UHGV virus genome: UHGV-0092003
Strand: one strand, 5' to 3'
From: a virus
DNA length: 64,000 bases
Part shown: in pieces, positions 62,231 through 63,745 of the stretch
How the letters are laid out: each line of letters begins with the position of its first letter
How positions within the stretch are numbered: position 1 is the first letter of the stretch
Translations under genes and position numbers: made by a program
The notes under the pieces: generated by a model
The model's input: the letters and a program-made list of their open reading frames with translations, nothing else
The model's database searches: none
Told to the model about the DNA's origin: nothing

Positions 62231-63745
62231 TGACCTTTCACTGACATAAATGATCAACCTCTCGCAGTTTGTATAAGAAGAGGTTGATCATCACTTTCCC
62301 ACCTTATCAACCACTCGCCAACCCGCTACACCGCTACAAACAAGGCAATAACGCACATAAGAAAACAATTTGTTTGCAGATCAACGTAACGTCAAACGAA
62401 AACCCATTTTTGCCCTCATTTTTTGACATTTGAGAACAGCCACTCTTACACCCGCCAGATACACCACCAGAACGCACAGGTTTCGTTTAAACAAGAAAAC
62501 CCACACCAACACATCACCACAAATCAGAGTCGCTTAGAACGCGTTATAGAGCGTTTACGATGATTAGCCGTTCAACGCGAAATTGAGGAAAAGAACCACC
62601 AACAACACATTCAGGCAAAACCCTCCATAATAACGGAAAGAACGTAACCGGCATACCACCAACCAAAGGAGACGAGGCTCAAAAATCACAAGAACACCGC
62701 TCGACTTATCTCAGACATTTGGATACCCGCCTACCATTCACAGGCACCGAAACACCACTCAGTTTTCATCAGGCACACCAGAGAAGCGACAGAACGGAAA
62801 TCCCATACCCGCCATCCATCGATAACAACGTAACCTCAAATCCCCAGAATTGCGGAAACCAGACAGCACAAGGCTTAAAGACACATTCACCCAGATAACA
62901 ACTTGTTTAAACGCACAAGGAAACAACCAGCCGCGTACCTGCCATCTCCCAGAGTAAAACGGCGAAACAATCACTTCGCCTATATGGCATTACCCAAGGT
63001 AGAACGAATCCCGGATAAGAGAACAACCCAGAAGAAAACCACCAGGAAAGAACAACAGCACCAGAGAGAACGACATAAAGAAATCCCGAAGAGAAGAACA
63101 CTCCCAGATACACATTCACCATAGAAACGATAGAAAGACTCAGAACGAAATTGGGAATAAGAAAGAGACAGTTTGGGAAGGTCATTTACCGTTTTGGGAA
63201 GGTAGCGTTTAGAGGCTCTGGAGGTATGGGATTGAGACGTTATGGGGGTGAAGAGATTTGGGCGTTTGGGCGTTTGTGAGAGAAGCGTTTGGGCGTTTGT
63301 GTAAGAGGGGGAGGAAAAAAGGTCGCGCTTCCGTTTTCGCATAAATTCAAGCGGTAGTTTCGCAGCCCTGCAAAAAAAACGTCCGCGCCGCCGCTCAAGC
63401 CTACGGTTCAGAAACGGGTCGGTTACCTTCTATGCCGGCCATTAGGGAAAAGGCTGTATACCGAAACGGCGCGGGGAACGGGGAGGTTGCCGTATAGAGA
63501 CGGTTATCAGCGAGAAGGTTGGCCGAGGTGCGAAGGAGAATGGCAAGGCTGGTGGTGTGAGGCGACCCAGGCATAGGCTCGTATAAATACGGTCACACCA
63601 CCAGCGAGCTTCATTCTGCCATGTAGTTGACGGGCGTCAATATTTTCTGTTCGGTCATTGTATCTCATCACCCTTTTGAAAGTGCTTTTTCGCCTTGGTG
63701 TTGTTGCGATAATAAGTCACATAAGAAAACAACGGAGTAAAGCAC
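62231..63745. other. 1.5-kb non-coding region with extreme strand-compositional asymmetry
   Basis: The + strand is A+C-rich and G-poor from ~62280 to ~63120, then G-rich, C-poor and GGA-rich from ~63120 to ~63560. It holds direct repeats TTTGGGCGTTTG x4 and AACGTAAC x3. No credible ORFs. Confidence 0.5.

Follow-up and report, generated by a model that had tools for sequence, protein, structure and literature searches.

The textbook Rho-dependent terminator is lambda tR1/nutR (rutA-boxA-boxB-rutB), and RNA that contains more C than G, is unstructured and is free of ribosomes is the defining substrate of Rho. Rho antagonists include the proteins Psu, from phage P4, and Rof/YaeO, as well as RARE, a short cis-acting segment of the Salmonella mgtCBR leader. 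To our knowledge, there is no trans-acting RNA decoy for Rho. Here we analysed positions 62231-63745 of a stretch of the virus genome UHGV-0092003 (64,000 nucleotides [nt], hereafter the window) and identified in this region an element of SSU5-type phage-plasmids that is unannotated and matches no described RNA family. We assign a probability of about 0.75 to its being a functional plus-strand RNA element. That it acts through Rho is a separate and more tentative proposal, to which we give somewhat less than even odds.

Like lambda tR1, the element corresponds to untranslated, C-rich, G-poor and unstructured plus-strand RNA between co-directional phage genes, and upstream transcription appears to halt at it in the related phage Cyrano. 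The resemblance extends to short strings, i.e., CACTCTTACACCCGCC in the element and CGCTCTTACACATTCC in lambda, and AAACCCACACC and AAACCACACC. Unlike lambda tR1, the element is about 10 times longer, carries covarying hairpins at its flanks, is closed by a long-range helix and has operator and leader motifs of its own. In its length of about 1 kb, its location on phage-related elements and its discovery by comparative analysis it resembles the Rfam families GOLLD, ROOL, OLE, HEARO and raiA. However, those RNAs are densely structured throughout, whereas this element is conserved for lack of structure over ~80% of its length. A search of Rfam (Rfam 15) at the permissive threshold of E <= 1, with the region and three other lineages as queries, returned nothing relevant, and literature searches found no description of the element.

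The region is 99.9% identical to an unannotated stretch of the finished Klebsiella pneumoniae plasmid pMB7868_2 (NZ_CP103584.1), which is 111.5 kb long and non-mobilizable. This plasmid carries terminase, portal, capsid and tail genes and also encodes RepB, a DnaB-like helicase, a ligase, NrdAB, ThyA, RNase HI and a site-specific integrase. Because phage structural genes are combined with plasmid genes, and because the DUF4942 methylase of the replicon is 62% identical to its counterpart in Salmonella phage SSU5, the window is, judged by gene content, a Klebsiella SSU5-type phage-plasmid. The element lies near the 3′ end of a long plus-strand gene array, 29 kb from repB. The finished copy, together with homologues in more than 100 independent assemblies, rules out an assembly artefact, which the first-pass annotation of this DNA had named as a way in which its description could fail.

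That annotation had described ~850 A+C-rich, G-depleted nucleotides abutting ~450 that are G-rich and C-depleted. The first part is confirmed, with A 38.7%, C 29.6%, G 16.9% and T 14.9% in 62421-63120. The second part is indeed G-rich, but its strong C depletion spans ~200 nt only (G 37.5% and C 8.0% in 63121-63320; G 32% and C 24.5% in 63321-63610). GC skew is -0.15 to -0.40 over 62200-63100 and +0.14 to +0.46 over 63100-63600, and AT skew reaches a maximum of +0.57. The strongest 500-nt windows of the 64 kb, i.e., the top five for C over G and the top four for G over C, all fall within the region, and no segment other than 62391-63190, in the window or in the remainder of the 111.5-kb plasmid, reaches 66% A+C in 300-nt windows. 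Folded as RNA, 62421-63120 has a predicted energy of -99.5 kcal/mol, compared with -210 +/- 22 kcal/mol for 91 other 700-nt windows (z = +5.1); the next least stable window outside the element is at -160 kcal/mol. This A+C-rich body is no more stable or structured than its own shuffles. It is also poor in start codons, with ATG at 2.9 per kb versus 20 per kb (a sevenfold depletion) and NTG at 11 versus 49 per kb. The compositional anomaly is far beyond chance.

The region had been called free of open reading frames (ORFs), and this is true in the useful sense that no ORF has a family match or is conserved across lineages. Chance ORFs reach 120 amino acids on the minus strand and 73 on the plus strand. 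Searches of Pfam and PHROG with all ORFs of the region of at least 54 amino acids gave no match, and a six-frame comparison across lineages revealed no conserved protein in the homologous regions, just short, weak matches scattered over frames and strands. Also, indels among relatives are not multiples of three, so a reading frame is not preserved. With no family match, no conserved frame and frame-breaking indels, a protein-coding gene is not supported. Several hypothetical proteins are annotated in the element on either strand, including SSU5_108 and SSU5_109 (NC_018843 90891-91130 and 91506-91703), CYRAN_103 and CYRAN_104 (OV696614 94381-94737 and 95227-95631) and others in several Klebsiella plasmids; none of them is conserved from one lineage to another, and they are probably spurious. 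A minus-strand ORF of 15 codons (63658-63611) has a plausible ribosome-binding site (RBS) and a length kept in several relatives, but was rejected because its frame differs in one of them (L006). The conserved feature at this position is probably the DNA palindrome TTGACGGGCGTCAA (63627-63640), which lies between the element and the promoter downstream and may act as an operator.

Every SSU5-type phage-plasmid examined has the element (1.1-1.5 kb). A full-length homologue at ~80% identity is present in 28 plasmids, and at the corresponding position many further SSU5-like plasmids of Klebsiella and Enterobacter show a 1.5-1.9-kb gap with the same composition profile that blastn leaves unmatched except for the last 60 nt. 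SSU5 itself carries the element (at 90.4-91.7 kb), and it is also present in six Klebsiella phages and in the E. coli phages Cyrano, CMS-2020a and PhiR41_1. A further 69 loci in metagenomes and 52 in IMG/VR came from pattern searches, most of them on contigs of 105-115 kb. These searches also gave one Kluyvera contig; all other matches of a 15-base pattern scan of genome contigs were attributable to chance, and a search of genome contigs for related loci with the DUF4942 protein gave no match. The location is syntenic in SSU5, Cyrano, the Klebsiella phages and plasmids, Citrobacter, Enterobacter and Kluyvera. Clustering separates at least five deep lineages whose bodies are not alignable by blastn; the middle of the element has diverged past recognition by blastn, and layout, strand and composition are common to all. 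In the motif search set of 120 elements (101 distinct), the body is 710-993 nt long with an A+C fraction of 0.56-0.72, and an upstream hairpin with the loop motif TCTATAAGA is present at every A+C-rich body found. The A+C-rich strand is the gene-sense strand at every locus. The element is never inverted in more than 120 loci, and a test for an invertible segment found a second orientation at none of them. Every sufficiently long locus holds one intact copy.

The shared layout runs, in the 5′ half, from the hairpin HP1 (loop TTTCTATAAG) through a C-rich linker, the leader AAGAAAACAA, ATCAAC-N5-GTCAAC and TTGAC to CTTAYAY (M5). The 3′ half comprises the body of 710-993 nt, RTRTAAG (M3), a G-run polypurine tract, a pyrimidine run, CGTAKAAATTCAAG and a G-rich domain. 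In the window, the parts are as follows, with their basis in brackets.

62250-62291, plus strand: HP1, a 13-bp hairpin directly after the upstream stop codon, with loop motif TTT(C/G)TATAAG (inverted repeat I3, 100% complementary; covariation).
62292-62356, plus strand: C-rich, G-poor linker (sequence).
62357-62375, plus strand: leader motif ATAAGAAAACAA overlapping the operator-like palindrome AAACAATTTGTTT (motif counts).
62391-62427, plus strand: HP3, in which GTCAAA (62391-62396) pairs with TTTGAC (62422-62427) (RNAalifold).
62445-62451, plus strand: M5 (CTTACAC), the 5′ strand of the long-range helix; pairing here extends over 62440-62451 (inverted repeat I11, pair counts).
62452-63298, plus strand: A+C-rich, G/T-poor body enclosed by M5:M3 (composition, folding).
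62893-62927, plus strand: internal degenerate copy of operator and leader motifs, TAACAACTTGTTT ... ACAAGGAAACAAC (motif scans).
62961-62995, plus strand: most conserved block of the body, the hairpin GGCGAAACAATCACTTCGCC followed by GGCATTACCC (alignment A1, other lineages).
63172-63306, plus strand: direct repeats, TTTGGGAAGGT twice and GCGTTTGGGCGTTTGTG twice (repeat search; unit-sized indels in alignment A1).
63299-63305, plus strand: M3 (GTGTAAG), the 3′ strand of the long-range helix (pair counts, folding).
63303-63339, plus strand: HP-T, in which a 20-nt polypurine G-run (63303-63322) pairs with the pyrimidine run GCTTCCGTTTTCG (63327-63339) (folds in seven lineages, covariation).
63338-63352, plus strand: A/T-rich box CGCATAAATTCAAGC (consensus CGTAKAAATTCAAG), conserved in all lineages (alignment of 29 sequences).
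63353-63545, plus strand: G-rich domain with repeated GGGAA(A)CGG ... CCG(G)TATAGAG units, GGGAAACGG..CCGGTATAGAG (motifs common across lineages).
63548-63640, no strand assigned: variable 3′ flank with a 13-bp hairpin (63548-63605) and the palindrome TTGACGGGCGTCAA (63627-63640) (inverted repeats).
63708-63745, plus strand: right boundary, a promoter-like GATAAT, the leader ATAAGAAAACAA and the RBS of the downstream gene, whose ATG is at 63746 (sequence, promoter contexts).

The helices at the two ends carry the argument for RNA. The stem of HP1 varies in sequence but stays paired (CCTCT/AGAGG, GAG/CTC, GGA/TCC, GATTC/GAATC and TTAC/GTGA). Six of its pairs are changed on both sides, a number reached by 0 of 500 shuffles; slid controls score lower, and the G.U pairs of the stem fit the plus strand. 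HP3 pairs GTCAA(C/A/T) with (G/T/A)TTGAC, and RNAalifold gives one covarying pair (AU:4, CG:4), which in the 101 distinct elements appears as C-G in 62, A-U in 21, U-A in 2 and C.A in 15. The arms of HP1 and HP3 account for all TTGAC repeats. At the other end, HP-T has covarying pairs among 68 type-2 sequences (e.g., AU 18, GC 42). Its polypurine tract is the second-longest purine run in the window, and the G-run is kept in all lineages. The equivalent hairpin of the Cyrano lineage is clean, has U5 directly after it and resembles an intrinsic terminator.

The two ends appear to be tied by M5 and M3. Their 7-bp core is paired in 104 of 105 cells (15 distinct sequences), and 0 of 500 shuffles match either the pairing or the covariation; among these 15 sequences one position varies as C-G, U-A and U.G and another as C-G and U-A. 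In the 120 elements, where extraction by motif fixes the invariant M5/M3 positions by construction, the combinations are CTTATAC/GTATAAG (44), CTTATAT/ATATAAG (40), CTTACAC/GTGTAAG (24) and 12 intermediates, all of them U.G and none C.A, with two that have a single C.C mismatch. Intermediates of the U.G type alone are the pattern expected of plus-strand RNA. Folding of the putative transcript 62355-63352 places M5:M3 in the minimum-energy structure with a base-pair probability of 0.97. Comparative analysis thus shows covarying plus-strand helices at both ends of a conserved, non-coding, strand-specific element. An alternative pairing of the G/T-rich repeats with the body (inverted repeats I8 and I14) was rejected, as it is not nested and not conserved in relatives. 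Earlier, the region had been taken as non-coding and functional, and this guess appears right.

Between its ends the body follows a gradient, being C-rich to ~62980, A-rich purine over 62980-63130 and G/T-rich with GGGAA repeats over 63130-63300. The k-mers common to all bodies are TTACCC and GCCAT only. The string GGCATTACCC is the window's copy of a dispersed repeat, GCCATTACCCA, of which other lineages have 3-6 copies, and some lineages carry 36-nt tandem units in the body. The tandem repeats reported at first pass are present (TTTGGGCG and the 22-nt GCGTTTGGGCGTTTGTG), and the copy number of the direct repeats varies among relatives. Every lineage has one internal operator/leader copy, at differing positions. 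The G-rich domain may or may not belong to the same RNA as the body; its fold z-score is -2.3, and no convincing consensus structure for it was found.

A few loci depart from this arrangement. The Citrobacter freundii plasmid NZ_CP032183 (L004, 5040-5640 and 9152-10090) and two IMG/VR contigs (L027 and L028) have two elements ~4 kb apart, one of the window type that is cut off after ~600 nt and runs straight into ORFs, and one intact element of the SSU5 type. The pattern suggests that a genome needs one intact copy and that each type has a slot of its own. In the K. michiganensis plasmid NZ_CP056140 (L012, 1830-2640), ~800 nt of unremarkable composition, annotated with two minus-strand ORFs, stand in place of the body; HP1, the leader, M5 (CTTATAC), M3 (CTGTAAG) and the G-rich domain are retained, and an IS3 transposase gene lies just upstream. 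This locus could be either a natural body-swap mutant or a decaying copy. In the IMG/VR contig 2606217110_000013 (L054, from ~16690; element position 1100 onward), the G-rich domain is broken by unrelated sequence directly after the A/T box and CCCCCGTAAC. The minus strand of this insert appears, as judged by eye, to encode an IstB-like ATPase of an IS21-type element. Cyrano, a close relative of this contig, has an intact G-rich domain, and the case hints that this domain is separable from the RNA core.

The control signals of the element are common to many plus-strand genes of the window. The leader motif has 10 plus-strand copies in the window compared with 0.58 expected; eight of these lie 10-40 nt upstream of a plus-strand gene start, after a GATAAT hexamer, and the other two lie inside the element. 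The palindrome AAACAAnTTGTTT has 16 copies compared with 0.41 expected (at 1225, 22150, 22175, 30293, 32069, 47801, 49744, 53968, 55461, 57527, 58539, 58590, 61141, 61434, 62363 and 62896), and in the contexts inspected its neighbours are the leader ATAAGAAAACAA and -10-like GATAAT hexamers, a short distance before the start of a plus-strand gene. Two features listed at first pass are therefore not unique to the region. The palindrome AAACAATTTGTTT is present at 62363-62375 but is one of these 16 operator-like copies, and the orphan RBS at 62893-62925 is present but is a degenerate copy of the multi-copy gene-leader motif. The palindrome set looks like the operator network through which a putative master repressor would control SSU5-type phage-plasmids, comparable in spirit with the C1 operators scattered over phage P1. 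Because the operator and leader motifs are common to many plus-strand genes, the arrangement suggests that the element is controlled together with early genes. A weak -10-like GGCAAT (62344-62349) lies in the linker, 7 nt before the leader motif, in the same placing as GATAAT in gene promoters, and we infer a promoter function for this site. A sigma-70 promoter TTGACA-17-TTACAC (62422-62451) was rejected, since what would be its "-35" forms the 3′ arm of HP3 and its "-10" coincides with M5. Elsewhere in the window there is a second promoter/operator type (3879-3909 and 4908-4931). Here a TATAAG -10-like hexamer comes after the inverted repeat GATAAGTATTTACTTATC (or GATAAGTAAACATTTAC) and precedes by 25-30 nt the genes that start at 3934 and 4936; this hexamer recurs in the HP1 loop and in M3.

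Published RNA-seq values are available for Cyrano. In lysogens of LF82 carrying Cyrano and grown in lysogeny broth, CYRAN_103, an ORF annotated inside the body, has a log2(FPKM+5) (FPKM, fragments per kilobase per million mapped reads) of 2.32, which equals zero reads, and it remains at or below 4.3 in all conditions (PMC9928086 Table S1). The gene that ends 110 nt upstream ranges from 5.6 to 9.2 on this scale and the next real downstream gene reaches up to 7.8 (PMC9928086 Table S1). The drop in reads from the upstream gene to the body suggests that upstream transcription halts at the entrance of the element; the element itself is silent in Cyrano lysogeny. The drop may be caused by Rho, by HP1 or by RNA decay.

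Based on these features, we propose that the element is a dedicated non-coding transcription unit of SSU5-type phage-plasmids that would yield a plus-strand RNA of ~1 kb (~62355-63345), or of ~1.1 kb if read-through from upstream brings in HP1. Its ends would be folded, by HP3 (and HP1 in read-through transcripts) at the 5′ end and by HP-T at the 3′ end, and M5:M3 would tie them together around a loop of ~850 nt. Selection would keep this loop unstructured, free of start codons and richer in C than in G, while its sequence drifts and its composition does not. Such a ribosome-free, single-stranded loop could serve as a landing platform for Rho or, less likely, for another single-strand RNA binder. 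In the lysogen, HP1 and the C-rich linker would stop transcription arriving from upstream genes and the unit itself would be silent; through the operator-like sites it would be switched on with the early lytic genes. We infer the transcript ends, the promoter and the control by a repressor from these features. We hypothesise that Rho is the partner and acts in cis, with the element as a very strong terminator or insulator, in trans, with the RNA as a decoy, or in both ways.

Engagement of Rho is ranked first because the body is richer in C than in G, unstructured and ribosome-free. Rho utilisation (rut) sites are C-rich, G-poor RNA over at least 70-80 nt with little secondary structure and no ribosomes; the body has C 29.6% and G 16.9% over 700 nt, its folding is weak at z = +5.1, and it has no conserved ORF and is depleted of ATG and NTG. 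The suggestion that the region is an ideal rut tract fits its composition, folding and ATG depletion, but a rut site alone leaves the hairpins and the long-range helix unexplained. A lambda-type nut site, i.e., a boxA resembling CGCTCTTTA with a boxB, was not found. The boxA-like CACTCTTAC occurs just in the lineage of the window and in SSU5, with no hairpin after it, and other lineages have TTCTTAT, TGCTTAT or CACTTAT at this position, where the M3-pairing part alone is conserved. Neither a boxB-like hairpin nor an N-like protein was identified. The conserved M5:M3 implies that full-length RNA is made and matters; it fits a pure terminator poorly and tips the balance slightly towards a role that is conditional or in trans. 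A trans-acting RNA would be, like Psu, a tool of a mobile element aimed at Rho and, like RARE, an RNA that engages Rho without productive termination. In its most far-reaching form the proposal is of a new class of large non-coding RNA, selected to lack structure and expressed in lytic growth as a decoy for the Rho hexamer, an RNA counterpart of P4 Psu that would relax termination on phage and host genomes; we consider this form unlikely.

Several points weigh against the proposed RNA element and its link with Rho. Efficient Rho termination inside the body would leave M3 untranscribed, so that the conserved helix calls for antitermination or a trans role. The A-richness and T-depletion of the body are not needed for a rut site, and its dispersed repeats (GCCATTACCCA, and the 36-nt tandem units of some lineages) hint at a sequence-specific partner beyond Rho. 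GGCAAT matches three of six consensus positions and would be a weak promoter, and a generic scan for promoters and terminators gave nothing convincing, no better than shuffles. The expression data are limited to lysogens of a relative, in which the body is silent. As for M5:M3, the helix is just 7 bp long and mostly A-U, it rests on ~2 independent compensatory events and ~4 U.G intermediates, and single-sequence folding puts its probability near 0 in five of six other lineages. There is also a small chance that the M5/M3 inverted repeat acts at the DNA level, as two sites for one protein.

The repeats and the base composition speak for the first rival explanation, a sponge or scaffold for a single-strand RNA binder other than Rho (S1, a cold-shock, KH-domain or phage-encoded protein) or for pairing with G/U-rich RNAs. 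The GCCATTACCCA and ACCCACC..CAGGCTACCG repeats are the sole sequence features common to all bodies, tandem 36-nt units are present in some lineages, folded ends would protect a trans-acting RNA, and Rho leaves the A-richness and T-depletion unexplained. No candidate partner was found, however, and the window's own lineage has few copies of the repeats. We regard this explanation as unlikely, if the best placed of those that do without Rho. Two specific forms were rejected: an Hfq sponge, as (ARN)n runs are not enriched, and mimicry of the 16S rRNA 3′ end or anti-Shine-Dalgarno sequence, which is no better than in shuffles.

The G-run raises the question of a transcript-primed lytic replication origin of the ColE1, T4 oriF or mitochondrial conserved sequence block (CSB) type, with an RNA-DNA hybrid at the polypurine tract. 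The replicon's RNase HI, PolA-type polymerase and 5′-3′ exonuclease would process and extend the hybrid, and the A/T box with the GGGAAACGG repeats would be the unwinding and loading zone. As in ColE1 RNA II, T4 oriF/oriG and the mitochondrial light-strand promoter (LSP)-CSBII, a promoter-proximal non-coding transcript of several hundred nucleotides would run into a G-run polypurine tract on a replicon with RNase H and Pol I-type functions. The 20-nt G-run is present in all lineages and is followed by the A/T-rich box and short repeats, the local GC skew flips from negative to positive, and RNase HI, a DnaB-like helicase, a ligase and exonucleases are encoded on the replicon. There is one intact element per genome, and the gene for the plasmid initiator RepB is 29 kb off, so a separate lytic origin is to be expected. 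However, the polypurine tract is one arm of a conserved, covarying RNA hairpin, which points to intramolecular pairing over a free hybrid, and the RNA upstream of it is unstructured, unlike the elaborately folded RNA II. C/A-rich RNA makes poor R-loops, and HP1, HP3 and the long-range helix would have no obvious role. Searches found no DnaA boxes or regular iterons, and the cumulative GC skew of the whole replicon is monotonic with no turning point here. We hold an origin to be less likely than such a sponge.

Less likely again, in our view, is a DNA-level site at which M5, M3 and the TTGAC-type repeats would bind a recombinase, terminase, partition or repressor protein for packaging, partition, resolution or looping. 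As an inverted repeat, M5 and M3 could be a pair of sites for a single protein, and such sites would change in concert too; GTTGAC-type hexamers occur six times in the 5′ 200 bp and again as the palindrome at 63627-63640, and GATC clusters are found in the 5′ part only. Against this, all 12 of 12 intermediates are T.G and none is C.A, and HP1, HP3 and HP-T stay paired although their sequences vary, and include G.U pairs, which on the opposite strand would be mismatched. Hairpin arms account in full for the TTGAC repeats, and duplex DNA offers no easy reason why fast-drifting spacers should keep a strand-asymmetric composition. None of the more than 120 loci has the element inverted, and the terminase and ParA/ParB-type genes are far off. 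A link with genome termini or packaging, raised at first pass, finds no support.

The first-pass annotation had also likened the G-rich part to a CsrA/RsmA sponge, in which GGA motifs in 63120-63560 would titrate CsrA. The element does resemble CsrB/CsrC/RsmX-Z in being a non-coding RNA locus that has a 3′ hairpin and G-rich motifs in short repeats, for which protein titration is one possible mode; GGGAA pentamers are enriched here and in relatives, and some in SSU5 are CAGGGA in small predicted loops. Unlike in those RNAs, GGA is not enriched (11 GGA compared with 14.5 +/- 2.5 expected from composition; ANGGA 2 versus 3.8), the dominant G-poor body could not bind CsrA and the length is 1 kb rather than roughly 100-370 nt. 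CsrB has ~60 GGA motifs per kb; the density here, 25 per kb, is equalled by 4246 other 441-nt windows. The GGGAA units sit within longer conserved motifs (GGGAAACGG..CCGGTATAGAG) unlike CsrA sites, and Rfam gave no Csr/Rsm match at E <= 1. This makes a CsrA sponge very improbable. Hardly any weight falls to non-functional DNA, i.e., decayed gene cassettes or leader duplications kept by chance, since the degenerate gene-leader copies, the replaced body in K. michiganensis and the truncated copies in others are set against a layout and extreme composition retained across lineages without sequence similarity, one intact copy per sufficiently long locus and several covarying helices.

At its margins the element meets variable DNA. 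The gene adjoining it upstream (61826-62230 in the window) varies among otherwise similar plasmids, with ORFs of 405, 312, 201, 513 or 270 nt (compared with L002, L007, L009 and L011). Homology among relatives begins exactly at the stop codon of this gene, and in every case the junction falls on the opening bases of the element (TTGACC); this edge appears to be a hotspot of cassette exchange. The variable 3′ flank is probably outside the core element. Its perfect 13-bp hairpin (63548-63605) contains one Chi octamer (GCTGGTGG) per arm, one on each strand, with a small CGTATAAATACG hairpin in the loop, and it is replaced by unrelated sequence in the close relatives L006 and L011. Clustering of Chi sites was rejected, as there are just two, both in this variable hairpin. 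GATC is absent from 62380-63745, the last 1365 nt of the region, whereas the whole window has one per 235 nt; three sites lie within the first 150 nt (62252, 62286 and 62379), two of them in the arms of HP1. This distribution may be a mere consequence of composition.

SSU5-type phage-plasmids are common in clinical Klebsiella, E. coli, Salmonella, Citrobacter and Enterobacter and can carry resistance genes, and public records leave the element blank or fill it with spurious hypothetical proteins. The HP1 loop, M5/M3 and A/T box motifs are usable to detect and subtype these elements. If the element is an RNA, it would be among the largest conserved non-coding RNAs of bacteria and phages, with selection directed chiefly against structure and translation signals, which would be unusual. 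Each of the functions considered, i.e., a Rho terminator or insulator, a decoy for Rho or another protein, or a lytic origin, would if true fill a gap in the understanding of how these replicons switch between plasmid and phage, and each would offer a defined target for curing or disabling SSU5-type elements.

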